DNA of 64,000 bases, taken from the IMG/VR virus record IMGVR_UViG_3300023371_000094; one strand, written 5' to 3'. Below the pieces are notes generated by a model. The model was not told the origin of the DNA. It did no database searches and saw only the letters and a program-made list of their open reading frames with translations. Of the stretch, positions 18,692 to 59,472 are shown piece after piece. This DNA is from a virus. Lineage: Duplodnaviria; Heunggongvirae; Uroviricota; Caudoviricetes. Made by a program: the position numbers and the translations under genes. Within the stretch, counting starts at the first letter, position 1, and every line of letters begins with the position of its first letter.

Positions 18692-19981
18692 ATGGATAAT
18701 TACGGACGAATACAAGTAAGGATAGCCCGTGATAAAGCAAGGAGACGGGCAAAAAAGGAAAGAATGAACGCCGAATACGATAATTTTGACAAGGTTATCC
18801 GAGTGCAGAATTACGTTGAGGCATTGAACAAATGTCGGAAAGGAGTCGCTTGGAAAGGTACAGTTCAGGAGTATCTCCAGAATGGAGTCACTGAAATGCA
18901 CAAAGTAACGACAGCGCTTAAAAAGGGAGAGATTCCTAAGCTGGCGAGTAGTAGACGAATTGAAATCTATGAAAGAGGCAAGAAGAGAATTATTGTTCCG
19001 GTTACTATTAAAGATAGAATGACACAGCGCGTTCTATGCGACAAAGCGTTGACTCCCGTTTTATGCAGGTCGTTGATTTACGACAACGGAGCCAGTCTTG
19101 CAGGAAAGGGCGTAGAATTTACGCGCGACAGGCTGGAATTTCATTTAAGACGTGCCATTGCGGAATACGGGAACGATTTTCACGCTCTTGTTTTTGATTT
19201 CAAGAGCTTTTTCGACAGCATACCTCATCGAACTTGCTGGAAGGTTTTGAACGAACACTTCGAAGATGAGCGTATTAAGAAATTAGTTATGAACATAATT
19301 TGCTCCTATCAAGAGCCAGAGATAATGGAAATACAGGATAGGAGAGAAAGGGAAGAAAAGCTGAGGATATTACATAGCTTTCAAGGGAAGGGCATTTGCT
19401 TGGGAAGTCAAATATCTCAGGTGATGGCTTTATCCGTCCCCAGCAAATTAGATCATTTTATTAAGGATAAGATGCGCGTGAAGCATTATATCCGATATAT
19501 GGATGACGGAGTTATTTTCTCGAACGATAAAGAGTTCTTACACGAGCTTCGTGCGAAAATGCGCGAGGTGGCAACTGAACTCGGTCTTACGTTCAACGAG
19601 AGAAAGACTCGTGTCGTCAGAATATCCAGAGGCTTTACCTTTATGAAGGTAAGATACTGGGTGACATCAGAAGGGAAAGTAATAAAGAAGCTGACGCGCT
19701 CGGGCATCACACGAATGCGCCGGAAGCTTAAAAAGTTAGCACGCTTGGTAAAGAACGGAACGATAACACTTGATGATGTGTATAACTCAATGCAGTCGTG
19801 GGTAGCACATTCAAAAGTTGCAAGGTCGTACCACACTTTAAGAAGTATGCTGAGCTTATATTACAAGCTCTTTGGTGGGTATAAGTCCCACAGAAAATAT
19901 ACGAAACAAGGATGGGTTAAAAATGAAATTTTACAAAATGATAAATGGCGAGAATTTCGTTGGAATTGGAACGTCGCTTGA
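18692..19981 (+). CDS. DGR reverse transcriptase (RT-1)
   Basis: RT motifs including LGSQISQ (the DGR-specific SQ in motif 4) and YMDD (RYMDDGVIF); about 300 bp downstream of TR-1. Confidence 0.9.
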   Translation: MDNYGRIQVRIARDKARRRAKKERMNAEYDNFDKVIRVQNYVEALNKCRKGVAWKGTVQEYLQNGVTEMHKVTTALKKGEIPKLASSRRIEIYERGKKRIIVPVTIKDRMTQRVLCDKALTPVLCRSLIYDNGASLAGKGVEFTRDRLEFHLRRAIAEYGNDFHALVFDFKSFFDSIPHRTCWKVLNEHFEDERIKKLVMNIICSYQEPEIMEIQDRREREEKLRILHSFQGKGICLGSQISQVMALSVPSKLDHFIKDKMRVKHYIRYMDDGVIFSNDKEFLHELRAKMREVATELGLTFNERKTRVVRISRGFTFMKVRYWVTSEGKVIKKLTRSGITRMRRKLKKLARLVKNGTITLDDVYNSMQSWVAHSKVARSYHTLRSMLSLYYKLFGGYKSHRKYTKQGWVKNEILQNDKWREFRWNWNVA

Positions 19982-21549: not shown

Positions 21550-21700
21550 GCCGTTTTGTCTTTGTTTTGCGTTCCCCTTACCGTGGTAACAGTAACTACT
21601 TCTGCTACGTGTATGGCGGTGACTTCAATTACAACTACGCCAGCAATCACTACGCTGTCGCCTTCGGATCTTGCACAATATGCCCGACAAAGTAACCTTC
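21550..21700 (+). repeat. Candidate DGR-2 template repeat (TR-2), a diverged homologue of TR-1/VR-1
   Basis: Non-coding between avd-2 and RT-2 (the ORF-track N-terminal extension of 21556..23046 is not real coding). In the VR-like frame it reads RSPYRGNSNYFCYVYGGDFNYNYASNHYAVAFGSCTICPTK*, compared with VR-1 RSPYASNSTHFMLVYGYGG...GVCPCFS. Contains AAC/AAT codons and ends in a stop, as TR-1 does. Confidence 0.55.
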
Positions 21701-21885
21701 AAGGTGAAATCTGTGCGTGTGCAAAAGGGGCATATAACCCTTCCTTCGGGATAAAGAAATACGTTGATGTGGTCTATCGGACGCTTCTTGCATTGCTCGC
21801 GATTGTGGTAGCGAGTTTAATGATAGGTACCACTATGCAGTTATTCCCACAATATTTTACTGTACTGGGTATAAAGGAATTAAAA

Positions 21886-23046
21886 ATGAATAGTAAGGAA
21901 AGACACGAGTTGAGATATCAGCGGCGCAAACAAAAGCGCCTTGAAAAGAAAAAGCGTTATCAGGATTGTTATGATTACGATAAGGTGTTTACGTTCGAGA
22001 ACCTTTATCGTAGTTATGAGAAATGTTGCGCGGGCGTCGGTTGGAAGCCCAGCACGCAACTCTATAAGGCGAATGCCTTGATGAATATAAATCGAACATA
22101 TAAGAGCCTACGAGAAGAAACCTATGCTCCGAGGAAGCTAAATGAATTCGACATCATTGAACGCGGGAAGCAGCGTCACATACAAAGTCCTACGATGAAC
22201 GATAGGATAGTGCAAAGATGCTTTTGCGATTATAGCTTGATGCCGATTATTTGCAGAACAATTATCTATGATAATACCGCCTGCGTCAAAGGACGCGGAT
22301 TGAGTTTTACCATAAAGAGAATGACTCGGCATTTAGAGAAGTATTACAGAGAGCAGGGAAGTAATGAGGGATACGCATTACTCTTTGATTTCTCGCAGTA
22401 TTTTAAGAACATCAGGCACGACGTGGCTCTATCAATACTTGATGAAAAGATACCAGACAAGCGGTTGGTTAGGCTTGCAGAACTTATCATAAAGCAATAT
22501 GGCAATGAAGGGTTGGGGCTCGGTAGCCAAGTGTCGCAATGTTGTGCATTGGCGCTCCCGGACAAGCTCGATCACCTCATCAAAGAGAAGCTAAAGATAA
22601 AGTATTATTGCCGCTATATGGATGATGGTTGCATTATCCACCCCAACAAAGATTATTTGCGTTATTGTCTTCAAGAGATTAAATCCGTATGCAGTGAGCT
22701 TGGAATTATAATCAATGAAAAGAAGACGCAAATTGTAAAGATAAAATCTGGCATCAAGTTCCTTAAAGCTCGCTTTATTCTAACGAAGAGTGGACGAGTC
22801 ATAAGGAAGCCGTATACCAAGAGCGCAACGAAAATGCGCAAGAAGCTCAAAGTATTAAAGCTGAAGCTTGATGCAGGGCTCATAACCTTTGCTGACGTTT
22901 GGACACCATTCCAATCGTGGCTTGGTTATCACAAACAATTTCACGGATACTGGGCAAGACGAAGAGTCTGTTCTTTATTCAATAATTTATTTTACACAGG
23001 AGGAAACACAAATGGATTGGCAAACAGTTTTACTTTCGGCACTTAG
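21886..23046 (+). CDS. DGR reverse transcriptase (RT-2), paralogue of RT-1
   Basis: True start MNSKERHELRYQ with RBS aaaggaattaaaaATG; motifs LGSQVSQ and RYMDDGCII; alignable to RT-1 across its full length. Confidence 0.85.
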   Translation: MNSKERHELRYQRRKQKRLEKKKRYQDCYDYDKVFTFENLYRSYEKCCAGVGWKPSTQLYKANALMNINRTYKSLREETYAPRKLNEFDIIERGKQRHIQSPTMNDRIVQRCFCDYSLMPIICRTIIYDNTACVKGRGLSFTIKRMTRHLEKYYREQGSNEGYALLFDFSQYFKNIRHDVALSILDEKIPDKRLVRLAELIIKQYGNEGLGLGSQVSQCCALALPDKLDHLIKEKLKIKYYCRYMDDGCIIHPNKDYLRYCLQEIKSVCSELGIIINEKKTQIVKIKSGIKFLKARFILTKSGRVIRKPYTKSATKMRKKLKVLKLKLDAGLITFADVWTPFQSWLGYHKQFHGYWARRRVCSLFNNLFYTGGNTNGLANSFTFGT

Positions 23047-23480: not shown

Positions 23481-24668
23481 TTATTCGCTTAGTATATCTG
23501 TTAAAGTACTTTGCATTATTGATGCAACCCTACTGATGCTGTCATCCTTGAGGTGGGTGTATATTTTCTCAGTAATACGAGAGTTGGAGTGACCTAAGTA
23601 TTTAGCCATATGGGCATAGTCAATTCCGCGCTCAATGCCGAGTGTGCAGAATGTGTGTCTAAGGTCGTGTATACGGATGTGCTTTAGGTTGTGTTTAGCG
23701 AGGAAACGTGAGAACTTGTTGTTCATCTGGTTCGGGCGCAAGGGAAGTCCCTTTTCGCTGACAATAACATATTCTCCGAGTATTCCTTTTTCTTCTTGCT
23801 GTTTACGATATTCGAGCAAACAATCTTTTAGTAGAGGATCCATTACTAACGCTCTGCGGCTCTTTTTTGTTTTTGGTTCCTTGGTAATAATCTTCCCTTT
23901 GATCGGTGTTCTCACTTGGGCTATATAGATGCGTCCTGTTTCGAAGTCAATGTTATTCCACGTCAACCCCGCAATCTCTCCGCGGCGTAGCCCTTCCCAC
24001 ATTCCCAGATACACAAATGCTTTTAACCTTAAATCCTTGCTTTCGTCTATTAGAGCTAACAGCTCCTTAACTTCCTGCGCGGTATAGGCTGTGCCCTCAA
24101 ACTCTTCGACCGGTAGCTTGCGTATTCTCTCGACTACATTGTCGGTGATATATTCACAGTCCTTTGCGTAGTTAAAAACGGCGCACAGGAATGTTCGGTC
24201 GGAGTTGATGGTTTTTGCTTTAAGCTTTCCTTCTTTTACGAGAGCATCGATGTACTCTTGCACATCAATTTTCTTTACCCGGATTATCTTTTTCTTCCCG
24301 AGTCCACGCGCCACGATTCTCCGTAGGATATTGTAGTAATCCTCTTGAGTGGTAGGGGCGAGGGGTTTGTTTTCAATATAAGCCTTGGCACATTCTTCGA
24401 TAGTGATTTGTGTATTGGTACTGTGTTTGCCAAGATTAGTTCTTTCGTATTCGTGTTTCTTCAGGAGAGCCTCAGCTTCCTTGAGGGTATCACACGTCTT
24501 GAACGTTCTCTGTGGCTTACCAAGTTCGGCGCCGAGGTACAATGTCACGATGTACTTGCCAGTCTTTTTATTACGAGCAATATTCCTCTTAACTGTTTCT
24601 CGTTCGCCTGTTCCTTTTTTACCTTGTTGAGTCCTTGTTAATTCTTTTACGTCTTCATTTTTCGTCAT
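23481..24668 (-). CDS. int: Tyrosine-type phage integrase
   Basis: Catalytic signature GLRRGEIAGL ... HDLRHTFCT ... GHSNSRITEKIYTHL (R-H-R-Y); strong sigma70-type promoter upstream. Confidence 0.9.
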   Translation of the reverse strand: MTKNEDVKELTRTQQGKKGTGERETVKRNIARNKKTGKYIVTLYLGAELGKPQRTFKTCDTLKEAEALLKKHEYERTNLGKHSTNTQITIEECAKAYIENKPLAPTTQEDYYNILRRIVARGLGKKKIIRVKKIDVQEYIDALVKEGKLKAKTINSDRTFLCAVFNYAKDCEYITDNVVERIRKLPVEEFEGTAYTAQEVKELLALIDESKDLRLKAFVYLGMWEGLRRGEIAGLTWNNIDFETGRIYIAQVRTPIKGKIITKEPKTKKSRRALVMDPLLKDCLLEYRKQQEEKGILGEYVIVSEKGLPLRPNQMNNKFSRFLAKHNLKHIRIHDLRHTFCTLGIERGIDYAHMAKYLGHSNSRITEKIYTHLKDDSISRVASIMQSTLTDILSE

Positions 24669-45218: not shown

Positions 45219-46220
45219 TTAATCTCCTGTCGTTTCTTTTTCTGACATTTTACTCTCCAAAGCATCAAGCTTGAGGACAATGTCGTCTATGGTGTAATTG
45301 TTTCCTGCGATTAGGTCATGCACGTCTGTTCTTCCGAGAACGAAATCACTCACTGATACACGAGCCCTGTCGAACATCGCTTGATACGTGCCGAGATACC
45401 TCATTGTAACCCTCTGGTCGCTATGGTTAAGCAAACCTTGGATCTTGGTAATGGCGTTCATATCAATGCTGGATTTATCTACACAGGCAGCGATGTTAGC
45501 AAAACTCTTTCTCATCGTGTGTGAGCCAATTACGATCGGGAGTTTTAGTGCTTTGCCCGCATCGGACAAAATCTTCCACCCATATTCCTCATACATTTTC
45601 CCCTTCGTCTTGTTGCTCTTGAAGAGGTAATCGTCCAGATCGAATTTCCATTGGATGGAATCGAAGTATTTTGTAATAGCATCTATCACGGACTCCGTGA
45701 TTAAACAGTCATTTATTTTACTGGTTTTTTGTTCTATTACGTACATCCTTTCTCTGAAGGTTTTGTCCTCGTTGAGAAAGGCACTTATTTTCAAAGAGAG
45801 TAAGTCTGAAATTCTTAAACCGAGGCTAACACCTACAGTCCACATCATCCAGTCGCGAATTCTTTTACGTTCGAGGAAGTAATTTTGTATCGCAACGAAG
45901 TCTTCGTAAGACCGAATCGGCTCCGCCGCGTGAGCCTTTCGCTTGCCATCGCTCTTAAAATCAGTATATTCCTCGTGCTCGCCAGTTGCTTTCAGACGAC
46001 GTTTTTTCGGGATAACTGTTTTGAGCTGGTGTATTGTTTGCTCAAGCTCTTCAACTTTGCGCTCTGCATCGTAGCGCAATCTTCTCTCAGTGCTTAGGTC
46101 GTTTGCTAATTGCTCTTTTTCTCGTTCAAGCCGGGCAATAGTTTGAGCTTCTGTTTCGTACATTCGGTGAATTGCTTCGGCTAAATGCGGGGCAAGAGTA
46201 ACCTCAACGTCATTTTGCAT
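45219..46220 (-). CDS. Second tyrosine recombinase (XerC/D- or integrase-like)
   Basis: GLRISDLLSLK ... IGSHTMRKSFA ... LLNHSDQRVTMRYLG (R, H-x-x-R, H, Y). Confidence 0.8.
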   Translation of the reverse strand: MQNDVEVTLAPHLAEAIHRMYETEAQTIARLEREKEQLANDLSTERRLRYDAERKVEELEQTIHQLKTVIPKKRRLKATGEHEEYTDFKSDGKRKAHAAEPIRSYEDFVAIQNYFLERKRIRDWMMWTVGVSLGLRISDLLSLKISAFLNEDKTFRERMYVIEQKTSKINDCLITESVIDAITKYFDSIQWKFDLDDYLFKSNKTKGKMYEEYGWKILSDAGKALKLPIVIGSHTMRKSFANIAACVDKSSIDMNAITKIQGLLNHSDQRVTMRYLGTYQAMFDRARVSVSDFVLGRTDVHDLIAGNNYTIDDIVLKLDALESKMSEKETTGD

Positions 46221-47016: not shown

Positions 47017-48156
47017 TTATAGATTGTGCATAAGGAGGAACTGGTTGCTGATGCATTTAAAACTTGTTGTGTTGTCGTGATCTCGGATTACCAGTCCTTC
47101 GCGCAGCGTGTCGCAAAGAACTGATTTACCGTCCGCAAACTGAATCATATCGTTTACGGTTGGAAGCAAGATAAAGTTTTCATCGAGGATTGGCACCCAC
47201 TTGATACCGAATTCCTTAACGATGTTGATAGCCTCTGTGCTATCAATCTTTTTGCCGTCAACAACAAGGTTGAATGCATAGAAGTCTCTGCCGGTCAAAC
47301 CGTACTTATTCTTCTGGATTGACTCGCCGATTGTTTCTCCTTGAAGCACTACTGTCGTCGCGTTATATCTCTCAAGTATCGTCATCAAGACACTCTTGAT
47401 GTTGTACTTATTCGACATCTCGTGATAGACATTATCTTCGTAGAAACACTTTTGATTGATGTCAGCCTGTCGAACGTTACGAGAGCACACCGCGAAGTCG
47501 TATTTTCTTTTCTTTTCTTTTCTTAGACCGAAGCTCGTTGATGTACCGTCAAGCTTCTCGGTAACAACCATCGGCTTGTCCTTGAAAGTCTCAAGAACGA
47601 ACGGCATATTCTGCAAACGAGTTTCGTCAGTCTTCACGATCCAATCGGGGAAGCCTTTCGCTTTCTTTTTAGGGATGAAGAACTTGAACATAAGCTTTCT
47701 GAACCAAGTATATTTCATCATATACCTGATAAGCTTGTTGTTATATAGTTTTTTATGTTGCTGTTTGAAACGAGTCATCTGGTCTACGGGTTTAGCCTTC
47801 GGTACATCGTCCTCAATCTGGGTGATTTTCAAAACCGAAGTAACGTCGTCGCCAATGTTGTAGTCCGGGAAGGGAAGAATACCCATCGGGAAAACAATTC
47901 CCTGAGAAATCACGCCCTTCATCTTCATTGTCTTAATCTTGTAATGCTTCTTTTCGAGGAAAGCAAAGTCGGGATTATCCTTGTCTACAATACTGTCGAT
48001 TTCTATGTAAACGCACGGCTCGCCTACTTGGAACTCGTCCTTTTTGGCGATACACTGCCATCCGAGGACACCGACAAGCTCAATCCTGTCGGCACCCTCA
48101 ATAGGCTTTTTCCAGACGATTTGTTCAACATGAGCTAAAGCTCTTGCCATAACCAA
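47017..48156 (-). CDS. ATP-dependent RNA/polynucleotide ligase (KxDG nucleotidyltransferase superfamily)
   Basis: Motif I TEKLDGTS; 379 aa; sits in the RNA-repair gene set. Confidence 0.55.
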   Translation of the reverse strand: MVMARALAHVEQIVWKKPIEGADRIELVGVLGWQCIAKKDEFQVGEPCVYIEIDSIVDKDNPDFAFLEKKHYKIKTMKMKGVISQGIVFPMGILPFPDYNIGDDVTSVLKITQIEDDVPKAKPVDQMTRFKQQHKKLYNNKLIRYMMKYTWFRKLMFKFFIPKKKAKGFPDWIVKTDETRLQNMPFVLETFKDKPMVVTEKLDGTSTSFGLRKEKKRKYDFAVCSRNVRQADINQKCFYEDNVYHEMSNKYNIKSVLMTILERYNATTVVLQGETIGESIQKNKYGLTGRDFYAFNLVVDGKKIDSTEAINIVKEFGIKWVPILDENFILLPTVNDMIQFADGKSVLCDTLREGLVIRDHDNTTSFKCISNQFLLMHNL

Positions 48157-50577: not shown

Positions 50578-51387
50578 TTAGGCTTCGTGGCGAAGTAGAT
50601 GATTGGCAACATACTCACGATCCTGTGTAAAGATCGGTGGTTCAGCATCTACTACCCACTTGCCCTCTTCGTTTTTATAGCAACATACGCCACGCTTGAA
50701 AGCGGTAGGCATATCGTTGAAATTGATTTGTTTTTGCTCCATAAGCATATCCTGAATGGCATTACAGGATTTGCCGTTCAATTCTTTGTGAGAGAAATTA
50801 CACTGTCCAAGCATCTGAATTGCATTTCTCGTTGCATCCTGCTGACGCCAAATGAAGCAGTTGACTACCTCGTCTTCAGGGATATTGAAGCAACGCGAGT
50901 CGAACATAGCTCCTTTGCAATATGCTTTTACATAAGCATCGTGAAGCCTTTTCTGTTTTTCATCGACGGGCGTATCACTACCGTCGTGCCAAACAGATAC
51001 TTCGTGTCTGTATACGGCGGTATGTAAACGTTGATTAAATACCAAAGTCGCCATACTTGCCGAAACACTACACATCTTCTGGACTGCGTTGTCAAACCAA
51101 GCATCGGTCGTAAGCGTGTCGTAATCCGTCAGCAAAAGAGTAATTTCATCCGACTGTGTATAGCCGAATTTACATCCTTGTATGTTTTCACAAAGAAAGC
51201 GCAGGGTTTCGTTCATCGCCCAGTGGAACACTTCGTCGTAAGGCTTATCAAAGCCTCTGGTAAATGTATGGAATGCCTTACCGTCAAGGCGGATGATTAC
51301 AGGCATCCTGCGAACCAAGTAAGTTTTTGCTCGGTTCTCGTAATTTTCTTTCATTCTGTCTCCGAGAGAATCTTTGCGATTACTCAT
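50578..51387 (-). CDS. Thg1-like protein (tRNA-His guanylyltransferase family, 3'-5' polymerase)
   Basis: MPVIIRLDGKAFHTFTRGF is the Thg1 N-terminal catalytic signature. Confidence 0.7.
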   Translation of the reverse strand: MSNRKDSLGDRMKENYENRAKTYLVRRMPVIIRLDGKAFHTFTRGFDKPYDEVFHWAMNETLRFLCENIQGCKFGYTQSDEITLLLTDYDTLTTDAWFDNAVQKMCSVSASMATLVFNQRLHTAVYRHEVSVWHDGSDTPVDEKQKRLHDAYVKAYCKGAMFDSRCFNIPEDEVVNCFIWRQQDATRNAIQMLGQCNFSHKELNGKSCNAIQDMLMEQKQINFNDMPTAFKRGVCCYKNEEGKWVVDAEPPIFTQDREYVANHLLRHEA

Positions 51388-52131
51388 TTACTCTCCCTCC
51401 TTTGGTCTGCATTTGCTTGGCTCTAATTTCATAGAGTGCCATATCGGCAAAGTGTGCTCGATACTTTTGTGACAACTGTTCAAGTATTCGAGTACTGGTT
51501 TGGTATTCTTGAGCCAATACTCAAAACGAGCTTCCATCGCAGATTCACTGCGATCAGACCAGATCTGGTCGTAGATTCTTTTCTTAATTGCTTCTTCATC
51601 GGTTACAAACGTAGCACCGATAGGAAAGTAGCAAGGTAAAATCTCAGATTTAATACCGCAACTCTCTTCGGTAACCCATATATGTTTCGTGGATATAACC
51701 TCTCTTGCATTGCCGATAAAGTACACATCCAAGTTATAATACTCGGGATATTCCCCGGTATCGATAAAGGTGTGAGTTACTTGGAGCATTTGCTCGTAGT
51801 AATCGAAACACCACATCGGGAACGATGTTTTATCCCAAGTACGCAAATATTGTCTGAAGTCGTGTATCCAGCCGTCGAAATATCTTAGGCGTGCACGCTC
51901 CATATCTGTCAGCTCGTCGCAACGCCAAATCAAATCGCACCAGATTTCCGTCAGGTGGTATAAGAGATATTTGTAATCACTTATGTATTCACTCGCAAAG
52001 GATGTGCGAAATGGATGTTCTTTGATTTGATCGTGGCATTTGCTTAACCTCGATAAAATATCTTGCTTTGCAGAACTCATATTGCCCTCCTGCTTACTGA
52101 AGAGTGTAGGGCATAGCTCTTTTGTGCGCAC
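51388..52131 (-). CDS. Hypothetical protein
   Basis: ORF. Confidence 0.4.
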   Translation of the reverse strand: MRTKELCPTLFSKQEGNMSSAKQDILSRLSKCHDQIKEHPFRTSFASEYISDYKYLLYHLTEIWCDLIWRCDELTDMERARLRYFDGWIHDFRQYLRTWDKTSFPMWCFDYYEQMLQVTHTFIDTGEYPEYYNLDVYFIGNAREVISTKHIWVTEESCGIKSEILPCYFPIGATFVTDEEAIKKRIYDQIWSDRSESAMEARFEYWLKNTKPVLEYLNSCHKSIEHTLPIWHSMKLEPSKCRPKEGE

Positions 52132-52810
52132 TCATTGCGTGGAGAAGGCTGATCGCCTCAGTGCTTTCAATTTCACCTCTGATGACTCCGTCAAGATACT
52201 CATAAGTAAATCCGAAGTTATCCTCGTCAGTCATTCCTGTTAAACCGTCCGATGGAGCTTTGCTGATATACTTCTGGTCAAGCCCGAACTCTGCCGCAAG
52301 TTCCTTGCCGATTTCCACAACTTCGGTGCAGGTCAAATGGTAAATGGGGTTAAGGTCGTATGCGCTATCGCCCCACTTGGTCGTCCAACCGATGTATGCT
52401 TCACTCGCATTGCCGGTGCCGATAACTCTGTATCCCAAGCTTTGAGCAATGGCGTAAAGAGTGGTCATTCTGATTCTCGGCGGGATGTTTGTGATTGCCT
52501 TCTGACTTACGTTTGCAAAGGGAACAGAGGAATTGATTGTGTGAATCATTTGCCCTGTAATGGCACCGATATTCACCAGTGCACTCTGGATTTTCAGCGT
52601 GTTACAGATAGCGACGGAGTCATTGAGGTCAACCTGTCCACCGTCGGGCATCATAACACCAACAACGTTGTCGCCCCAAACTTTCTTAGCAAGCATAGCA
52701 ACAACTGTGCTGTCTTTGCCACCGCTAATGCCAAGCACAACGCCCTTGCAATTGGTAGCATTCTTGTAATCCTCAAGCCAACTGAGGATTTTTGTAAGTT
52801 TTTCTTTCAT
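52094..52810 (-). CDS. nadE: NH3-dependent NAD+ synthetase
   Basis: PP-loop VVLGISGGKDSTVVA. Confidence 0.85.
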   Translation of the reverse strand: MKEKLTKILSWLEDYKNATNCKGVVLGISGGKDSTVVAMLAKKVWGDNVVGVMMPDGGQVDLNDSVAICNTLKIQSALVNIGAITGQMIHTINSSVPFANVSQKAITNIPPRIRMTTLYAIAQSLGYRVIGTGNASEAYIGWTTKWGDSAYDLNPIYHLTCTEVVEIGKELAAEFGLDQKYISKAPSDGLTGMTDEDNFGFTYEYLDGVIRGEIESTEAISLLHAMSAHKRAMPYTLQ

Positions 52811-52825
52811 AAAAGCTCCTTGTAT

Positions 52826-53110
52826 TCAATACAGTATCCTCCAGTATTCAGAACGTTTGCGATATCCATTCCCTTTTTGAGGAAGGTCAGCAGAACGTCT
52901 GACTCTACGGTTGGATTGCTTTTTTAAGTATTTTTGTGCGTCGGAGTTCTTCGGGTACTTAATGTATTTGCCTGTGGGTTGCCACACTCCGTCAACCTCA
53001 TCCCAGTCGATGTAACCAGCGTGAGGAATATAACCGCACTTTGTTATGATTTTGCGAAGGCGATTGTCCTTCTTGTTTTTCATCCTTCGCCTATAAGCTC
53101 GATTTCTCAT
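52826..53110 (-). CDS. Hypothetical basic protein
   Basis: ORF. Confidence 0.35.
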   Translation of the reverse strand: MRNRAYRRRMKNKKDNRLRKIITKCGYIPHAGYIDWDEVDGVWQPTGKYIKYPKNSDAQKYLKKQSNRRVRRSADLPQKGNGYRKRSEYWRILY

Positions 53111-53187
53111 ATGGTGCCTCCGTACATTCCGAACAATAGATTGTATTGTTCGGTATTATTCGGGGTATTGTTCGGAACATTATTCCG

Positions 53188-53658
53188 TTAAACGTTTAGT
53201 TCCCAAACCTCAACGTCCCAGCCATCTTCAGAAAATGCTTCCTCGATAAGCTCTTTGACAACACTCCAGTCGCCACCAGCAAGTCCGCATCCAATCTTAG
53301 CAGGGAAGCCAATCTTGTAGATAGACTTGATATGGCAGAAGCTTTTAATCATCGCAAGGCAACTCTTAAATGCTTCGTAGTTGGTATGTTGAATACCGCG
53401 CGGAAGATATTCTCTCTGCGAATACATATTGATGACGAAACGCAGAGAGCCATTTTCTGTTTCCACAGGAACGATATCGATTTCGCCGAGCTTAGCCTCG
53501 CCTTTCTCGAACCGTTCTCTGAGCGCTTTGTAAGAGTCGGGATAAAGGGCTCGAATTGTCTTTGCAATACCCGAGCCCATAACTCCCATACAGTTGGTTT
53601 GATGGCAGATCACATTGCAGGAGCTTTTGATTAAATCTCCTTGGTGATATGTAACCAT
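53188..53658 (-). CDS. Macro-domain protein (ADP-ribose binding/processing)
   Basis: GDLIKSSCNVICHQTNCMGVMGSGIAKTI ... GFPAKIGCGLAGGDW is typical of macro/Appr-1-p processing domains. Confidence 0.7.
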   Translation of the reverse strand: MVTYHQGDLIKSSCNVICHQTNCMGVMGSGIAKTIRALYPDSYKALRERFEKGEAKLGEIDIVPVETENGSLRFVINMYSQREYLPRGIQHTNYEAFKSCLAMIKSFCHIKSIYKIGFPAKIGCGLAGGDWSVVKELIEEAFSEDGWDVEVWELNV

Positions 53659-55160
53659 CAGAACTTACCTCCGTGGAGTCTGTCGCGGATTTCCTTGAGG
53701 GAATATTCCTTCTCCATCTGACCGTCGCAGAAAACAAACTCCATAAGATTGTTTTCGTCCTCAACGGTTTCGAGGTAGGTGTGCATATCTTCTGCCACAA
53801 GCTCGCCCTCGTGCTCCTTAACGATTACACAACCCTTGTGGGACTTCTTGAAGGAAGATTCCTTGGGGTTCTTAAAAATCGGGATAGGCGCACCGTTCTC
53901 GTCTTCAGCATAAGTTGCCTTGATGGCAATGCCAAAGGTGTCTCTGGTGTAGGGGTTGTATGTGGTCAAGGGATCTCCGTTGAATAAATCGATAGTTTCC
54001 AAGCACTGCATCGAAAAGCTTCCGACGCCAAGAGAAACATTGCTTGCGGCAAACCCGTTTTCAACGAGGATACTGTAGATTGCTTTGGCTCTCTGTGGTG
54101 TAATGCTATCGCCATAGATTGCCTTGACGTGGGGATCGAGAACCTTGTAGCCCTTCGAATTAACAGTTCCGCCGAAGATGTTCCAAAGGTGGAACACGGT
54201 TTGCGTTACGACCTCTACAGGATCGCCGGAGTCGCCTCTCACGAGAAGACATCCGTTGTGATTCATAATCTCGTTCTTGCACAAGGGAAGAAGATTGTCT
54301 ACGAGATTCCAGTAGTCGTAGCTATCGCTGACCATACTGAAAGAGGTGTTGGGGTAAATTTCGGTGAGCAAGCGCTTAATCATTGTGATTTCATCGCCGT
54401 CAACCGCGAAATTGCTACACATTACGGAGTGCTCGGTGGAAACGGCGCCAAAGCCAACCTCTTCCTTTGAGCAATCGCAACCATAATATCTCTCAAGATA
54501 GTCGATTGCGGGAACGGTAGCGGTGTTTACGAAAGAGAGAAGCCACGCTGCAGATGATTTGTATGCGCTTCTCTTGGACTCCTGACCTCTCATCGAGAAG
54601 TCACCAAGAGCTTTTCTGCGGGGGATATTGTCATCACAACTCAAATCGTAATACTTGTTTACGATCTGACGGTACATATATCCGACATTCGCAGAAATCA
54701 TAGCGTGCCACATCTCGCAACTGATTACCGACTCAATCGCATTGGTGAGCCAAGCAAACTTGGGATGTGTGTTGCTGATCTCAAACATAGGAACTCCTAC
54801 GGGGACTCTCGTTCCTTCGGGGAGTGCCTTAATTTCGAGAGGGAGATAACCGAGCTCGTGAAGCTCTGCAATTCTTTCCTCTCCGTAGAGCCCTGCACCG
54901 AGGGTGTTATCCATCAAGTGCTTGTACTCTGCCATAACCTCTTCCTTTGAGCGAGCGAAGAAGAACTCGTTGAAGTCCTCGATTAAGAACTCCTTGATGA
55001 ACGACTGTAAACCGAACATAATGATGTGGTTTTCTCCCACATTCTTAAGGCGGCTCATACGAGGCGTGAAGTAGCTCACAACCTTTGTAACGTTCTTTGG
55101 GTACTGGTTCCAGTGAACCTGCTTGTAGAAATCGCTTTCAAGCAAAGGGTTAATTCGGTA
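53658..55160 (-). CDS. Nicotinamide phosphoribosyltransferase-like enzyme (NAMPT/NadV family, possibly nicotinamide-ADPR transferase)
   Basis: N-terminal DFYKQVHWNQYPKNVTKVVSYFTPR signature; about 500 aa; probable start MYRINPLL (55160). Confidence 0.8.
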   Translation of the reverse strand, partial: YRINPLLESDFYKQVHWNQYPKNVTKVVSYFTPRMSRLKNVGENHIIMFGLQSFIKEFLIEDFNEFFFARSKEEVMAEYKHLMDNTLGAGLYGEERIAELHELGYLPLEIKALPEGTRVPVGVPMFEISNTHPKFAWLTNAIESVISCEMWHAMISANVGYMYRQIVNKYYDLSCDDNIPRRKALGDFSMRGQESKRSAYKSSAAWLLSFVNTATVPAIDYLERYYGCDCSKEEVGFGAVSTEHSVMCSNFAVDGDEITMIKRLLTEIYPNTSFSMVSDSYDYWNLVDNLLPLCKNEIMNHNGCLLVRGDSGDPVEVVTQTVFHLWNIFGGTVNSKGYKVLDPHVKAIYGDSITPQRAKAIYSILVENGFAASNVSLGVGSFSMQCLETIDLFNGDPLTTYNPYTRDTFGIAIKATYAEDENGAPIPIFKNPKESSFKKSHKGCVIVKEHEGELVAEDMHTYLETVEDENNLMEFVFCDGQMEKEYSLKEIRDRLHGGKF

Positions 55161-55962
55161 CATTGACTCTACCTTCTCTAAAGCTCTTGATAATCTGAAT
55201 TTTGGGGTGCTGGACAGTGCAGATACTGTCGGTTGTATACACCATATCAACCCAGTCAAGAACTTCGCCTTTCAAAATATTGTTTTCACAGTGCGAAATG
55301 TAGAGAATAATCTTCTCGACACCGCGCTTCTTCAGTTCTTTTGCGGCGGCAACAAATGTGCCACCATAACTACAAATGTCATCACGGATGATGACGTTCT
55401 TAGTCCCCTCAACAAAGTTAAGAAGCTCATATCCGTCGATTCTTCCTTCTTCGTTGCGATGCTTGTTTCCGATGATAGGATTAGCGACATCTTCTTGAGA
55501 GCCGTACTTCTTAGCCGCACCGGCATCAGGGTACATAACCGTATAAACATCACCGCTATTCCTCGTGAGATCGGTATCGGGATAAAAGATGGAGCGCATA
55601 GGTACTACTCTGTCAAGTACCGCGAGAGAAACATCCGAGTGGGGATCCAGCACGAACACCTTGCGGAAGTTCATAGCATTGATTGCCTTTGCAAAATACT
55701 TCAAGGTGAATAGTCTATGGCTTACCTCACGGTCTTGTCTTGCGTGAGGAATGTACGGCATAGCCAAGTTCAGCGTAATGTCGGGATATCTGTCCCTGAT
55801 ATAGCAAACAAGGCTCCAGAGAGTAAATAACTCTGCATCGTTATCGTAACACCAAGTGATAACGATAAGACTGCCTGCGGAATTGATCGGCGGCAGGGCA
55901 CACTTTAAAGTGCCGTCACCAAAGCAATCCTGTTCGATAACGTGGTCGTTTAGTTTAATCAT
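55150..55962 (-). CDS. Ribose-phosphate pyrophosphokinase-like enzyme (PRPP synthetase family, possibly ADPR-pyrophosphate synthetase)
   Basis: PRPP-binding loop NVIIRDDICSYGGTF; 270 aa; adjacent to the NAMPT-like gene. Confidence 0.7.
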   Translation of the reverse strand: MIKLNDHVIEQDCFGDGTLKCALPPINSAGSLIVITWCYDNDAELFTLWSLVCYIRDRYPDITLNLAMPYIPHARQDREVSHRLFTLKYFAKAINAMNFRKVFVLDPHSDVSLAVLDRVVPMRSIFYPDTDLTRNSGDVYTVMYPDAGAAKKYGSQEDVANPIIGNKHRNEEGRIDGYELLNFVEGTKNVIIRDDICSYGGTFVAAAKELKKRGVEKIILYISHCENNILKGEVLDWVDMVYTTDSICTVQHPKIQIIKSFREGRVNVPN

Positions 55963-56471
55963 TACACTACCTCGACCTGACAGCTACGCATTACTTCCAA
56001 TGCTGCGAGATGCTTTTCCTCGGAAAGACCGGCACAAAGATTTGCGTGAACTTTGATGGAAAGAGCAGGGTAGAGCGCCTTCAAGAGAAGTACGTTGCTT
56101 ACAACGCAGATGTCTGTGCAGGTTCCTACAACCTCAACCTCGTCGTAAGTACCGAGATTCCAATCTCTGGGCATACCGAAGGTGGGCTTATCGAGATATC
56201 TGAAATCCTGCTTTGTTTTAATAGCAGCTTCAATCTCGGGAACAACCTTCCATCCGTCGGTGTTCTTGATGCAATGCTCTACGGGAAGCTTAACACCCTC
56301 GGGAGATTTCAGATAATCTGCATCGTGAGTGTCTCTGGTTGCGATAATTGTGCCATCGAATGACTTAACTTTTTTTGCGATAGGCTTTACGATTGCTTCT
56401 GCGGCGGGATTTGCCAAAGCACCAGTCACAAAGTCGTTCTGCATATCGATGACGATTAAAGCTTTCTTCAT
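55962..56471 (-). CDS. pncA: Nicotinamidase / isochorismatase-family cysteine hydrolase
   Basis: ALIVIDMQNDF, catalytic Cys in GTCTDICV. Confidence 0.75.
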   Translation of the reverse strand: MKKALIVIDMQNDFVTGALANPAAEAIVKPIAKKVKSFDGTIIATRDTHDADYLKSPEGVKLPVEHCIKNTDGWKVVPEIEAAIKTKQDFRYLDKPTFGMPRDWNLGTYDEVEVVGTCTDICVVSNVLLLKALYPALSIKVHANLCAGLSEEKHLAALEVMRSCQVEVV

Positions 56472-56497: not shown

Positions 56498-56573
56498 TGG
56501 TCGGAGCAACGGGACTCGAACCCACAACATCTCGCTCCCAAAGCGAGAGCTCTACCATTGAACTATGCCCCGA
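56498..56573 (-). tRNA. tRNA-Pro (anticodon TGG)
   Basis: Manual cloverleaf: anticodon loop TTTGGGA, GGTTCGAGTCC T-arm, CCA encoded. Confidence 0.75.
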
Positions 56574-56574
56574 T

Positions 56575-56656
56575 TGGTACCCGTGGAGAGACTCGAACTC
56601 TCACTCTTACGAACCAGATCCTAAGTCTGGCGTGTCTACCAATTCCACCACACGGG
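56575..56656 (-). tRNA. tRNA-Leu (anticodon TAG), long variable arm
   Basis: Anticodon loop CTTAGGA; long variable arm; GGAATTGGTAGAC D-arm. Confidence 0.75.
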
Positions 56657-56658
56657 CG

Positions 56659-56733
56659 TGGAGTGAGTAACGAGAATCGAACTCGCATCCCCTGCTTGGA
56701 AGGCAGGTGTCTTAGCCGTTAGACGATACCCAC
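56659..56733 (-). tRNA. tRNA-Gly (anticodon TCC)
   Basis: Anticodon loop CTTCCAA; GAGTTCGATTCTC T-arm. Confidence 0.75.
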
Positions 56734-56736
56734 AAA

Positions 56737-56812
56737 TGGTGTTCGCGAGAGGACTCGAACCTCCGACTCCCTGATTAAAAGTCAGGTGCTCTACCGGCTG
56801 AGCTACGCGAAC
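56737..56812 (-). tRNA. tRNA-Lys (anticodon TTT)
   Basis: Anticodon loop CTTTTAA. Confidence 0.75.
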
Positions 56813-57062
56813 ATATTCAAGACACACCGCCATCCTTCCCGGACAATGACGTTGGGTGAGGATATAGCCTTGCGACGTCGCTTCTTACTACAGGCTACAT
56901 CGTAAGAGCAACAGAGAATGTTTAATTCTCAATCATTCGACTTTGCCGACAGTCATCTGGTTCTTAAACCAGTAATCAGTGAGTTTTAGGAGCTCACGTC
57001 CCATAGCATTATACTTACTATCCTGTTAATTTAATTTGAAAGTTGCTGTGTGTGTCTTTCTT

Positions 57063-57137
57063 TGGCTGGGGTAGATGGATTCGAACCAACGAATGTAGGA
57101 GTCAAAGTCCTATGCCTTACCGCTTGGCGATACCCCA
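57063..57137 (-). tRNA. tRNA-Gln (anticodon TTG)
   Basis: Anticodon loop CTTTGAC. Confidence 0.7.
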
Positions 57138-57286
57138 GTGTTGTGCTTATTCTCTTACCCTTTTATTTCACACGCACCTGCTTATCCACGGTAAAATACC
57201 TGATACGAGTTTTTCAAGGGTACAGGTGCATAGATTTTATGTGGGGCGATCTTTAACCTTTTCAGGACGCCGACCGCCGTAGCGCT

Positions 57287-57373
57287 TGGTACCAAAGATG
57301 GGACTTGAACCCACACGGTGTTGCCACCGCCAGATTTTGAGTCTGGTGCGTCTGCCAATTCCGCCACTCTGGC
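57287..57373 (-). tRNA. tRNA-Leu (anticodon CAA), long variable arm
   Basis: Anticodon loop CTCAAAA. Confidence 0.75.
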
Positions 57374-57376
57374 ATA

Positions 57377-57463
57377 TGGCGGAGAGTCAGGGACTCGAAC
57401 CCTGAACACCTTTCGGTGACGGCAGATTTCAAGTCTGCTGCCTTACCATTAGGCTAACTCTCC
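57377..57463 (-). tRNA. tRNA-Ser (anticodon TGA), long variable arm
   Basis: Anticodon loop CTTGAAA. Confidence 0.75.
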
Positions 57464-57955
57464 GTAACAATGTTCACAAGCAAACAAGGTTAACAACTCT
57501 ACTTACGCTCAACACCGTTGGTTGGTCTCCGTAGCCACACCTCGTCCACTCCTCAAGCCATTAAAGTTATTTGCTTGCAAACGATTGCCGCGCCGCTTCA
57601 GTAACCTATACGCTCTTGCAGTTCGCTAACCGATGCACACCACCGGCTAAGTTACCAAATGCCCGCTAAGTATGTAATCTGCACTCTCGTAGTACTATAT
57701 CCTCTCTGATGTGCTTACCCCGATCTAACGTGTCGGTAGAGGGCTTAACGTCATACAAATGCCTAATACGTTTTAGTACGGCTGGAAGATATATCATTTC
57801 ACCGCCAGCAGAGAGTTGCTTTCTTCTCATCTATATGAATGTTGCAAGGAGCCTTCAGCCATAGGAGCAGCTCCCGTGTTATTGTGCTCACGATATTGGC
57901 ACCACGACTTTCGTCGCGTCATTGTCACCGCCTATATTCACATCTGCAACACTTT

Positions 57956-58031
57956 TGGAGCTGATGGTGGGACTCGAACCCACGACCGGTTGATTACAAA
58001 TCAACTGCTCTACCAACTGAGCTACACCAGC
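57956..58031 (-). tRNA. tRNA-Thr (anticodon TGT)
   Basis: Anticodon loop TTTGTAA. Confidence 0.75.
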
Positions 58032-58179
58032 ATATATGTAATCCGCTGAACACCTTATTGGAACGCTTGCACCTTGCGAGGCTTCTATTGTTTTATTGCC
58101 GGTAGAATTTGAACCATTAACCGTAGCGGAAGGCTTCCTTTAACAACCCCTGCAAGGAAACTTTTTGAATGAACAGGGC

Positions 58180-58258
58180 TGGTGGGACGTTAAGGACTCG
58201 AACCTTAGACCTACCGGTTATGAGCCGGTGGCTCTAACCAACTGAGCTAACGTCCCGC
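58180..58258 (-). tRNA. tRNA-Met/fMet/Ile2 (anticodon CAT)
   Basis: Anticodon loop CTCATAA. Confidence 0.7.
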
Positions 58259-58329
58259 ATAAGCGGAGGGATTCGAACCCCCATCTTACGGTTTTGGAGA
58301 CCGCCGTGTTACCGTTACACCACACTTAC
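58259..58329 (-). tRNA. tRNA-Trp (anticodon CCA), no encoded CCA tail, directly abutting the downstream tRNA
   Basis: Anticodon loop CTCCAAA; acceptor stem carries two G.U pairs; 3' end contiguous with the first nucleotide of the CAT tRNA. Confidence 0.6.
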
Positions 58330-58331
58330 AT

Positions 58332-58421
58332 TGGCGGAGAGTAGAGGACTCGAACCTCTGCGCCGAATAAACGGCGAACGGTTTAGCAAACCGCTGCAGT
58401 GCCAACTATGCTTAACTCTCC
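58332..58421 (-). tRNA. tRNA-Ser (anticodon GCT), long variable arm
   Basis: Anticodon loop TTGCTAA. Confidence 0.7.
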
Positions 58422-58932
58422 GTATGATGTGTTTACGGCTTTTGTACTTCAAGCCGTCCGAGAAATTTTAGCTCGCCTCTTATTTAACCGTTGCGGGGCT
58501 GTCCCGTCGGTGAACACCTTAGCTTCAAGGTCGTACTGTTTGTTCCACCAGTGCCTTTTTCGGAACTAAATCCTATTGTTCGGCTTTCTCATCAGTGGCA
58601 ATTTAGAGAACCCACCAATGCCTTCCCTTGAAAATTCCACATTCTAAGCTTGCTAAGTTCTGTTTTATGAAAGTCTTAGCGGTTTGAGCGTATGTGGTGC
58701 GCCATCTCGTTGCTTATTTCTTCGGCAAATTGAAATAAGCCGTGGGTTTTACGATTACTAATTTCAACCTTTTGCAGGAAATCTCTCCATATGGGTGAGT
58801 AGCTTGCGGGGAACATCCCACGCACTTTATCGGCTGTTCATCTAACTCCATTTACTACTGCTGCTTTCATCCCAACGTCCGCTGGTTTGTTCTCCTTTTC
58901 AATGCCAGCATTCAGGCTTCGTAGCACCGATC

Positions 58933-59019
58933 TGGTGGGCATAGCGGGATTCGAACCCGCACGAATCTTATTCAACGGTTTTTAAGACCGTAGCGTTCTG
59001 CCTATTTCGCCATACGCCC
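58933..59019 (-). tRNA. tRNA-Leu (anticodon TAA), long variable arm
   Basis: Anticodon loop CTTAAAA. Confidence 0.75.
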
Positions 59020-59472
59020 AGAATTCTTGTTTCTGCCTCTGTAAAAATCGGTTTGAGCGTGGCAGTTGGGGCATAACATCATCAAGTTAGACAAGTCATT
59101 GTTAGACTTATCCCCGTCTTTATGGTGTACTTCGAGAGGTATCAAAAGTCCGTTCCAATGAGTATTATGACATCGTTCACATTCGTGCTTTTTTAATCCA
59201 TCTCTTAATAGTTTCTTTCGGATATGATCGCTATGAACGTTTTTGGATTTTGATATATATTCTTGAAATGGCATATACCTCGAAGGAACATATGTCTTAA
59301 CCCCTTTGCCACTTTGGTTTCCAGAATATGATATATTCATTTCTTTTAGATATCGGTTTAGGGTGTCAATTTTGCAATGCAATTGTCTGGCAATCCAAGC
59401 TTTGCTCTTATTTAAAAAGATCCAATCTTCAATAGCTGATTTATTTGATAAAATATATGTGCGCTTCGACAC
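59002..59472 (-). CDS. HNH homing endonuclease
   Basis: HNH motif EVHHKDGDKSNNDLSNLMMLCPNCHA; embedded beside the tRNA array; the 3' end overlaps tRNA-Leu(TAA) by about 18 nt. Confidence 0.8.
   Translation of the reverse strand: MSKRTYILSNKSAIEDWIFLNKSKAWIARQLHCKIDTLNRYLKEMNISYSGNQSGKGVKTYVPSRYMPFQEYISKSKNVHSDHIRKKLLRDGLKKHECERCHNTHWNGLLIPLEVHHKDGDKSNNDLSNLMMLCPNCHAQTDFYRGRNKNSGRMAK

Follow-up and report, generated by a model that had tools for sequence, protein, structure and literature searches.

Several phage-encoded pathways for the restoration of NAD+ have been described. In NAD+ reconstitution pathway 1 (NARP1), the Adps enzyme converts ADP-ribose (ADPR) to ADPR-pyrophosphate (ADPR-PP), which the Namat enzyme combines with nicotinamide to give NAD+ (bioRxiv 10.1101/2024.02.11.579819; PMC12774641). 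Enzymes of a bacterial NARP1, from Paenibacillus foliorum, likewise make NAD+ from nicotinamide and ADPR (PMC12774641). In addition, a macro protein resembling Poa1p, Adpp, is encoded in 15% of NARP1 operons and converts ADPR-1''-phosphate (ADPR-1''P), the product of the aRES defence, to ADPR, and the pathway extended in this way is called NARP1-AP (bioRxiv 10.64898/2026.01.28.702374); the Adps-Adpp-Namat operon of Vibrio phage Gary is of this kind. NARP2 (Nampt and NMNAT, phage KVP40) and NARP3 (PnuC and NadR; PMC13464706) also restore NAD+ from phage genes, but use other enzymes and the intermediates nicotinamide mononucleotide (NMN) and nicotinamide riboside. Here, a cluster is described from the 64,000-nt stretch IMGVR_UViG_3300023371_000094, hereafter the window (statements on window genes cover these 64 kb), in which Adps- and Namat-type genes and a macro gene stand between genes for a nicotinamidase (PncA) and an NAD+ synthetase (NadE). 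The window belongs to a tailed gut phage, with genes for a tape measure, tail fibres, a DNA polymerase, a primase-helicase, NrdD and an RNA ligase. What is new in the cluster is the presence of PncA and NadE together with a changed pyridine pocket in Namat. The reading favoured here, with confidence slightly better than even, is that the cluster is a self-contained, deamidated variant of NARP1-AP that would rebuild NAD+ via nicotinate and nicotinate adenine dinucleotide (NaAD, or deamido-NAD).

The genes concerned, from PncA to NadE, are the following.

55962..56471, minus strand: PncA nicotinamidase (169 aa; PF00857, 70 bits)
55150..55962, minus strand: Adps-type Prs homolog (270 aa; phrog_619, 2.7e-60; TIGR01251, 74.7 bits)
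53658..55160, minus strand: Namat-clade NAMPT homolog with a remodelled pyridine pocket (500 aa; NF006629, 451 bits)
53188..53658, minus strand: macro domain protein, Adpp-like (156 aa; PF01661; phrog_335 'phosphatase', 8.8e-44)
52826..53110, minus strand: small basic open reading frame (ORF), orf94 (94 aa), between the macro gene and NadE
52094..52810, minus strand: NadE, NH3-dependent NAD+ synthetase (238 aa; TIGR00552, 179.5 bits; PF02540, 167 bits)

A sequence-only reading had named five minus-strand ORFs of this cluster; all were found in place by an ORF check, and the families given to them (PncA, Prs-fold, NAMPT-family, macro and NadE) are all correct by family profile matches. From PncA to NadE, the genes overlap by 1, 11 and 1 nt and are then separated by gaps of 77 and 15 nt, the 11-nt overlap being that of the Adps-type and Namat-like genes and the second 1-nt overlap placing the macro gene immediately downstream of the Namat-like gene. 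Because the genes overlap or nearly abut, they are suggested to form one transcription unit. The same association of genes was seen again in hundreds of independent contigs and in several gene orders, so it is not due to chance.

Both central enzymes belong to the NARP1 families, as the sequence-only reading had supposed when it proposed a profile comparison with housekeeping enzymes. The Prs-like protein was compared with Adps proteins from the NARP1 operons of Belinda, VpaE1, Cody, Team1 and Phass-1 and with one bona fide Prs, that of E. coli, as outgroup. All Prs models score below their cutoffs on it; on TIGR01251 it reaches 74.7 bits (cutoff 113), within the 66-125 bits of the reference Adps proteins, compared with 423 bits for E. 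coli Prs. BLASTP ranks Belinda Adps first (139 bits) and E. coli Prs last (59 bits). As in Adps, the segments that Prs has at its N- and C-termini are missing, and Adps-type motifs are present (DPHS where Prs has DLHA, and SYGGTF in the ribose-5-phosphate loop where Prs has DTGGTL). The NAMPT-like protein, whose ATG start is consistent with the N-termini of its homologs, falls in the Namat clade and not with NadV/Nampt, by scores and by trees: it aligns with the SpβL1 Namat at 374-377 bits, compared with about 175 bits for human Nampt and 144-162 bits for phage Nampt (RB16 and a KVP40-like phage), and it lies in a clade with 200/200 support beside canonical Namats, with Nampt as the outgroup. 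Its best Protein Data Bank (PDB) match is 9w5w/9w5x (377 bits), taken as the SpβL1 Namat because the numbering fits D13, Y15, R40, F189 and D215 of the published enzyme (PMC12774641). The catalytic core is kept (D13, Y15, F189, R192, H245, R306, D308 and TRD). With NARP1, the window therefore shares adjacent Adps- and Namat-clade genes, the catalytic core, R40, F392 and TRD and, presumably, the step from ADPR to ADPR-PP. Two other identities were considered and rejected: NARP2, as the protein is closer to Namat than to Nampt, has a GSF and not a GGG loop and has no NMNAT with it in the 64-kb window, and NARP3, an unrelated combination of PnuC and NadR (PMC13464706). No NMNAT, PnuC-type or NadR-type partner was seen in the window cluster. 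As a side observation on the same gene pair, in Escherichia phage VpaE1 (Felixounavirus; locus L165, 2480-2971 and 2986-4767) a gene for an HNH endonuclease stands between Adps and Namat, and the Namat has 593 aa, about 100 aa above the usual length, from an internal insertion.

The Namat-like protein departs from canonical Namats in the pyridine pocket and in the selectivity-clamp helix (SCH), at the following places.

54603..54605, minus strand: pocket residue G186, where every canonical Namat and Nampt has His (SpβL1 H187, human H191)
54519..54527, minus strand: pocket motif N212-T213-A214, G-T-D in every canonical Namat and Nampt
54438..54449, minus strand: pocket motif G238-A-V-S241, S-I-P-A in canonical Namat, directly preceding the catalytic TEH
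53940..54023, minus strand: SCH region, GSFSMQC[LETIDLFNGDPLTTYNP]YTRD

A214 stands at the position of the nicotinamide-binding Asp (SpβL1 D215, human D219), on which HMMER alignment to 9w5x and MAFFT alignment agree; the window reads NTAT where canonical enzymes read GTDT, and GAVSTEH where they read SIPATEH. In SpβL1 numbering, the window has five pocket changes (H187 to G, G213 to N, D215 to A, S239 to G and A242 to S), and across the two groups of enzymes the residues at these positions are wholly disjoint (H187 to G/A/S, G213 to N/K, D215 to A/S, S239 to G and A242 to S). The Asp of GDFSMRG in the window was considered as a retained D215 and rejected, as it equals D188 in 9w5x numbering. 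The Nampt-like nicotinamide pocket with an amide-binding D215 that marks NARP1 is absent from the window. In the SpβL1 crystal structure, D215 forms a hydrogen bond with nicotinamide and A242 lines the pocket, and the D215A mutation lowers NAD+ synthesis about 8-fold (PMC12774641); in human NAMPT, the specificity determinant is D219 (PMC7096376). In human NAPRT, the equivalent site is occupied by Ser, and R318, the residue matching NAMPT R311, binds the nicotinate carboxylate (PMC4442680); this equivalence of pockets rests on published human structures. The Arg matching NAPRT R318 and NAMPT R311 (SpβL1 R306) is invariant in the Ala/Ser215 enzymes.

The changed pocket goes together with PncA and NadE in the neighbourhood. 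Single-sequence Namat searches gave only 3 and 14 loci, and alignment-based queries were used for fuller sets, namely Namat-selected viral loci, the best 80 loci from bacterial and archaeal genome contigs, and two groups of canonical loci (19 and 123), with neighbouring genes scored within 7 kb. Among viral loci with Ala/Ser215 and Ser242, which were chosen by Namat alone, both PncA and NadE were found in 75 of 83, and of the eight exceptions seven are truncated where their contig ends. All 80 genome loci carry the G-N-A-G-S signature, nearly always with PncA and NadE. The first canonical sample was D215/A242 throughout (19/19) and had PncA or NadE in none of its loci (0/19); two further unbiased scans (123 unique proteins) gave 115 proteins with Asp and eight with Glu at 215, and no PncA, NadE, PncB or NadD was found within 7 kb of these 123 further loci. 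Altogether, PncA or NadE was beside an Asp/Glu215 Namat in 0 of 142 loci. The Glu215 proteins form a canonical subgroup of their own (8/123; loci L348-L500), with Thr at 239, the signature HGETA, an Adps neighbour and no PncA or NadE.

Phass-1, a divergent lineage, provides a second case. Its Namat is 37% identical to the window protein and the main Ala/Ser215 clade and 41% identical to SpβL1 (canonical Namats reach up to 41%), and it joins the main clade in only 47/200 bootstraps. Its pocket carries precisely the window's five changes, with PncA and NadE on either side, while the clamp and all non-pocket discriminating sites have canonical residues. Downstream of a tRNA array, its genes follow the window's order: nicotinamidase, Prs, NAMPT, a small gene and NadE. 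IMG/VR scans that started from PncA and NadE gave 160 loci, most with all five genes and in at least two orders: 65 loci read Adps-Namat-Macro-NadE-PncA, about 29 have the window order and about 26 lack a detectable macro gene. The loss of the nicotinamide-recognising Asp, and a pocket that co-varies with PncA and NadE, suggest that the pathway may be re-routed through nicotinate and NaAD. In the sequence-only reading, PncA, NadE and the macro domain were a broader toolkit around the two-gene pathway; all three are present, but PncA and NadE are probably not mere extras, since the remodelled pocket co-varies strictly with both.

The frame in which the pair stands points the same way. In sibling gut-phage loci (L021, L028, L039, L047 and L050), genes for DUF5662, PncB (PF04095 and PF17767, 225 bits) and a NadD-like adenylyltransferase lie between PncA and NadE, a set predicted from its families to be a complete pathway from nicotinamide through nicotinate, nicotinate mononucleotide (NaMN) and NaAD to NAD+. 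The Clostridium acetobutylicum operon is nrtR-pncA-pncB-nadD-nadE (PMC2330246). Because the PncA/NadE frame is the same in the sibling phages and in C. acetobutylicum, Adps and Namat hold the slot of PncB and NadD, that is, of the steps turning nicotinate into NaAD. The window thus shares with the classical operon the PncA...NadE frame, the linkage to NrtR in bacteria, the predicted input of nicotinamide and NaAD as the penultimate compound; it differs in that PncB and NadD, which depend on phosphoribosyl pyrophosphate (PRPP) and ATP and work via NaMN, are replaced by an Adps and a Namat variant predicted to recycle ADPR. The combination that defines the Preiss-Handler route, PncB with its PF17767 N-terminal domain plus NadD, is missing from the window, whereas the sibling phage loci have both; no homolog of PncB, NadD or NMNAT was found in the window (tblastn for NMNAT and NadD). 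Two side observations concern the sibling clusters. The DUF5662 gene recurs in or beside phage PncA-PncB-NadD-NadE clusters (L021 10500-11066, L010 11189-11800 and similar loci). In one Preiss-Handler-type phage cluster, a macro protein of the microbial PARG type (PF10021; L021 9005-9787) is encoded just upstream of PncA, a further case of a gene for ADP-ribose handling that accompanies NAD genes of phages.

The two flanking enzymes have the features expected of their families. PncA shows the criteria of an isochorismatase-fold nicotinamidase (PF00857, an Asp-Lys-Cys triad and an Asp/His/His metal site): the triad D9/K95/C122 and the metal ligands D47/H49/H66 are invariant in 118 unique homologs, and the best PDB matches are the nicotinamidases of M. 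tuberculosis and P. horikoshii. NadE reaches 179.5 bits on TIGR00552 (cutoff 63.65) and has the P-loop GISGGKDS (SGGKDS). It has a single domain, without a glutaminase domain, and is therefore assigned from its sequence to the NH3-dependent type; its best PDB matches are NH3-dependent NAD synthetases. Both genes are rare among 50,697 deposited phage records, with a PncA homolog in only seven, all from human gut, and NadE in only 50; Phass-1 is among these records.

A scheme can be proposed from these elements. After cleavage of NAD+ to ADPR and nicotinamide, the macro protein would, when needed, convert ADPR-1''P to ADPR, and the Adps-type enzyme would turn ADPR and ATP into ADPR-PP. PncA would convert nicotinamide to nicotinate and NH3, the Namat variant would join nicotinate to ADPR-PP to give NaAD, and NadE would make NAD+ from NaAD, NH3 and ATP, possibly reusing the ammonia released by PncA. 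Adps and the Namat variant would in this way do the job of PncB and NadD in the classical PncA-PncB-NadD-NadE operon. Because PncB, NadD and NMNAT are missing from the window, only the scheme from nicotinate and ADPR-PP would leave the cluster complete, with no need of host enzymes. The reason for the detour may lie in the host, whose salvage could be deamidated and PncA-based: free nicotinamide may be short-lived, and nicotinate may be the available pyridine.

It could also be thought that the pair works as canonical NARP1-AP, making NAD+ from nicotinamide and ADPR-PP, and that PncA and NadE separately boost the Preiss-Handler route of the host, whose PncB and NadD would act in between, the second route being independent of ADPR. 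The clade membership of both enzymes and their retained catalytic core fit this, phages are known to carry Preiss-Handler genes (the sibling loci; PMC11662467), and SpβL1 D215A keeps residual activity with nicotinamide (PMC12774641). However, the remodelling of the pocket beside PncA and NadE would be left unexplained, given that the Namats without these neighbours are acidic at 215 in 142 of 142 cases, and so would the matching pocket changes of Phass-1. A nicotinamidase and a nicotinamide-consuming enzyme in one operon, the bacterial ones included, would moreover compete for their substrate. This combination of two routes is judged unlikely.

The choice of donor depends mainly on the clamp. 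The stacking Arg of the clamp loop (SCL), R40, is conserved (window TPRMSR aligns with TPRTSR), also in most of the clade. The SCH retains TRD and, at position 3, the aromatic F382 (equivalent to F392), and has Met at position 5 and Cys in place of Y396. The SCH motif typical of a NARP1 Namat is not found intact in the window, as it is interrupted by an insertion and has Cys at position 7; the insertion has 15-17 residues in the window, depending on the aligner, and 9 aa in bacterial versions. At 392, the window has a GSF-type aromatic residue, where Nampt has Gly in a GGG-type loop. The conservation of R40, F392 and TRD, with an Adps partner almost always adjacent, favours ADPR-PP over PRPP as the probable donor. 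With respect to NARP1, the window thus differs in the replacement of D215 by Ala with four further pocket changes, in the clamp insertion of 15-17 residues with the change of Y396 to Cys, in the flanking PncA and NadE, and in a predicted product that is NaAD rather than NAD+.

The same features can be weighed against a Preiss-Handler operon in disguise, in which the Namat-like enzyme would make NaMN from nicotinate and PRPP, the Prs-like protein would supply PRPP, and either host NadD would make NaAD for NadE or NadE itself would amidate NaMN to NMN. Nicotinate with either donor would be compatible with the changed pocket, the clamp helix is interrupted by an insertion and lacks Y396, and PRPP is accepted by Namat enzymes (PMC12774641). 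In bacteria, the operons would function in this manner with the essential NadD of the host, and the second-best PDB match of the window NadE is a short NadE, 3fiu. Nevertheless, the Prs-like protein has the Adps signature and scores far below true Prs, and a dedicated Prs would be redundant since every host makes PRPP. The clamp residues R40 and F392 are conserved, whereas Nampt has Gly at 392, and an ADPR-handling macro gene belongs to the same phage operon. In the sibling phages, PncB is accompanied by a phage-encoded NadD; self-sufficiency thus appears to be selected, and a PRPP-based scheme would be without it. A disguised Preiss-Handler operon is considered distinctly unlikely.

Some points weigh against the favoured route from nicotinate and ADPR-PP to NaAD. 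One complete locus with an Ala/Ser215 Namat, L188, has no NadE nearby. The main Ala/Ser215 clade is monophyletic (200/200 bootstraps), so the loci counted above are not independent trials, and the co-variation could trace to one or two events, in the main clade and in Phass-1. The substrate switch is drawn from one well-studied specificity residue and from comparative genomics, and is to be read as a prediction. A local profile-profile alignment of Namat with phage PncB covered the C-terminal half only, short of the pocket. The substrate of NadE, NaAD, is likewise predicted, and 3fiu is presumably the Francisella enzyme reported to prefer NaMN. Finally, the insertion of 9-18 residues in the SCH and the loss of Y396 could alter the use of ADPR-PP, and Namat enzymes keep some PRPP activity (PMC12774641), so NaMN is a possible product.

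The macro protein (PF01661, 32.3 bits; cutoff 22) belongs to the TARG1/DarG/Poa1p-type subfamily. Aligned over its full length, it shares 30% identity (E = 6e-20) with the macro protein encoded in the Adps-macro-Namat operon of Cody, a Vibrio phage related to Gary, and both proteins match the same PDB subfamily (TARG1, DarG, BT1257 and Poa1p). The match to Poa1p 6lfu (4e-6) is exceeded by that to the DarG macrodomain 5m3i (1.7e-12). From its sequence, the protein is predicted to be an ADPR-1''P phosphatase, and an ADP-ribosyl glycohydrolase would be equally compatible. As in NARP1-AP, a macro gene (PF01661, PF14519 or PF20016) lies within two genes of the pair and is probably of the Poa1p/TARG1 type; the window differs in its order (Adps-Namat-macro versus Adps-macro-Namat), in the added PncA and NadE and in low identity to the validated enzyme. 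The sequence-only reading had counted the macro domain among the additions to the known pathway; the gene does stand beside the pair, but the arrangement is already published as NARP1-AP. The macro gene of phage FADO, 36% identical to that of the window, was set aside as context since it has no NARP1 neighbour there. Some relatives have another gene where the macro gene would stand. It encodes about 139 aa with a HAD-like DxDxT motif, has no Pfam match, directly follows Namat in Phass-1 (L002 7552-7971) and Bacillus phage Belinda (L164 4514-4906), and also occurs after Namat in eight loci of the PncA/NadE type and in Belinda-like canonical NARP1 operons. It is perhaps an alternative accessory phosphatase.

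The four-gene core is not specific to phages. In many gut Clostridia it is a chromosomal operon linked to NrtR: a gene for this regulator (NUDIX and NrtR winged helix) stands beside PncA-Adps-Namat-NadE in 49 of the 80 genome loci, and the carriers are mostly gut Lachnospiraceae, Ruminococcus and Oscillospiraceae. An example is L317, on a 330-kb contig of the isolate Pseudoruminococcus massiliensis, where the operon lies between agrB, surface-protein genes and asd and its NadE is of the long glutamine-dependent type. NrtR is a repressor released by ADPR (PMC2330246), which would fit an operon whose substrate is ADPR. In Shewanella and Acinetobacter, a Prs paralog and a NAMPT-family gene also stand under an ADPR-sensing regulator, but the order is prs-nadV-nrtR and the cluster has no pncA or nadE (PMC2330246). 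The loci closest to the window (79-95% protein identity) are without NrtR. One of them, L268, from a sheep-colon 'Clostridia' metagenome-assembled genome, has about 95% nucleotide identity to the window over 15 kb and is therefore taken as the same phage, binned with its likely host. Bacterial operons lack the macro gene, which occurs only in phage-like loci without NrtR (0/49 NrtR-linked loci compared with 11/31 loci without NrtR). Most likely, the phage acquired the four-gene core from such hosts and then added the macro gene. Four IMG/VR 'viral' loci (L056, L089/L173 and L162) have an NrtR-like gene near the cassette; they may be misclassified bacterial DNA or phages that captured the regulator.

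These distributions bear on what the phage copy is for. A counter-defence role is plausible, and a general role in NAD recycling is equally open. The fuller reading, in which an enzyme making NaAD from nicotinate and ADPR-PP serves a widespread NrtR-linked salvage route in gut Clostridia that was captured by phages and extended with a macro protein against NAD+-depleting immunity, is held with evenly divided confidence. Whatever the chemistry, the phage copy could also be a host-derived auxiliary metabolic cassette for the upkeep of NAD+, not mainly for counter-defence, offsetting its consumption by, for example, ligases, ADP-ribosyltransferases or tRNA repair. This purpose, which cuts across the other readings, agrees with the chromosomal and NrtR-linked nature of the core, L317 included, and with the surroundings of the cassette, where an RNA ligase, a Thg1-like gene and a tRNA array are found. 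On the other hand, canonical NARP1 and NARP1-AP experimentally overcome NAD+-depleting defences (bioRxiv 10.64898/2026.01.28.702374), and the macro gene, missing from every NrtR-linked locus, is found in the phage-like contigs closest to the window, a distribution in keeping with an adaptation to products of defence, for example ADPR-1''P. Both roles could coexist, and upkeep as the main role is regarded as possible but rather doubtful.

In a literature search in which subscription journals were mostly uncovered, no description was found of PncA or NadE in NARP1 operons, of a nicotinate-using Namat or of NaAD formation from ADPR-PP. A survey of jumbo phages mentions pncB-nadD-nadE clusters and pncA, not the window arrangement (PMC11662467). 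If the scheme is true, NAD+ metabolism would gain a new step, the formation of NaAD directly from nicotinate and ADPR-PP, and phage NAD+ reconstitution would gain a route beside NARP1, NARP1-AP, NARP2 and NARP3. Adps and Namat could then be exchanged for PncB and NadD in an otherwise unchanged operon, a handful of pocket substitutions adapting the enzyme, and this swap of modules would be a clean experiment of nature on how type II phosphoribosyltransferases select their substrates. The operon to which the phage cassette is linked abounds in gut Clostridia and stands there beside NrtR, elsewhere an ADPR-responsive regulator, so that the recycling of ADPR may be a normal part of the bacterial NAD+ economy that was borrowed by phages. 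In current pipelines, the genes are labelled "Prs" and "nicotinate/nicotinamide phosphoribosyltransferase"; a simple diagnostic is the G-N-A-G-S pocket signature in combination with neighbouring PncA and NadE genes. The prediction is sharp, cheap to test and about a widespread operon.

Concerning the limits of the cassette, a scan for promoters and terminators gave counts at or near chance level and was uninformative on operon boundaries. A megablast search of the cluster against the 50,697 phage records gave no match, its relatives being visible only at the protein level. For orf94, no family match was found in the profile libraries and no homolog in the first 163 related loci, and its region fails to align with L268, about 95% identical elsewhere, which has a shorter stretch there. 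Both orf94 and a 247-aa ORF after NadE were rejected as members of the cassette, being unconserved in relatives.

Twelve tRNA genes (56498-59019, minus strand) lie directly upstream of the NAD cassette on the same strand, and the layout of a tRNA array followed by an NAD cassette is common to Phass-1 and the window. An HNH-like ORF is found at 59002-59472. Genes for an RNA ligase and for a tRNA-His guanylyltransferase of the Thg1-like kind (47017-48156 and 50578-51387) follow just downstream of the cassette and form a tRNA-repair context; a macro protein acting as an ADPR-1''P phosphatase could also clear by-products of Tpt1-type repair, but no Tpt1 gene was seen. Two integrase-like ORFs (23481-24668 and 45219-46220; phrog_1 and phrog_216) point to a temperate life cycle or to functions in site-specific recombination. 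Elsewhere in the window, two reverse-transcriptase ORFs (phrog_1423) at 18692-19981 and 21556-23046, possibly parts of diversity-generating retroelements, lie near a giant ORF of 2301 aa (10387-17292) and a tail-fibre gene (5504-9853).

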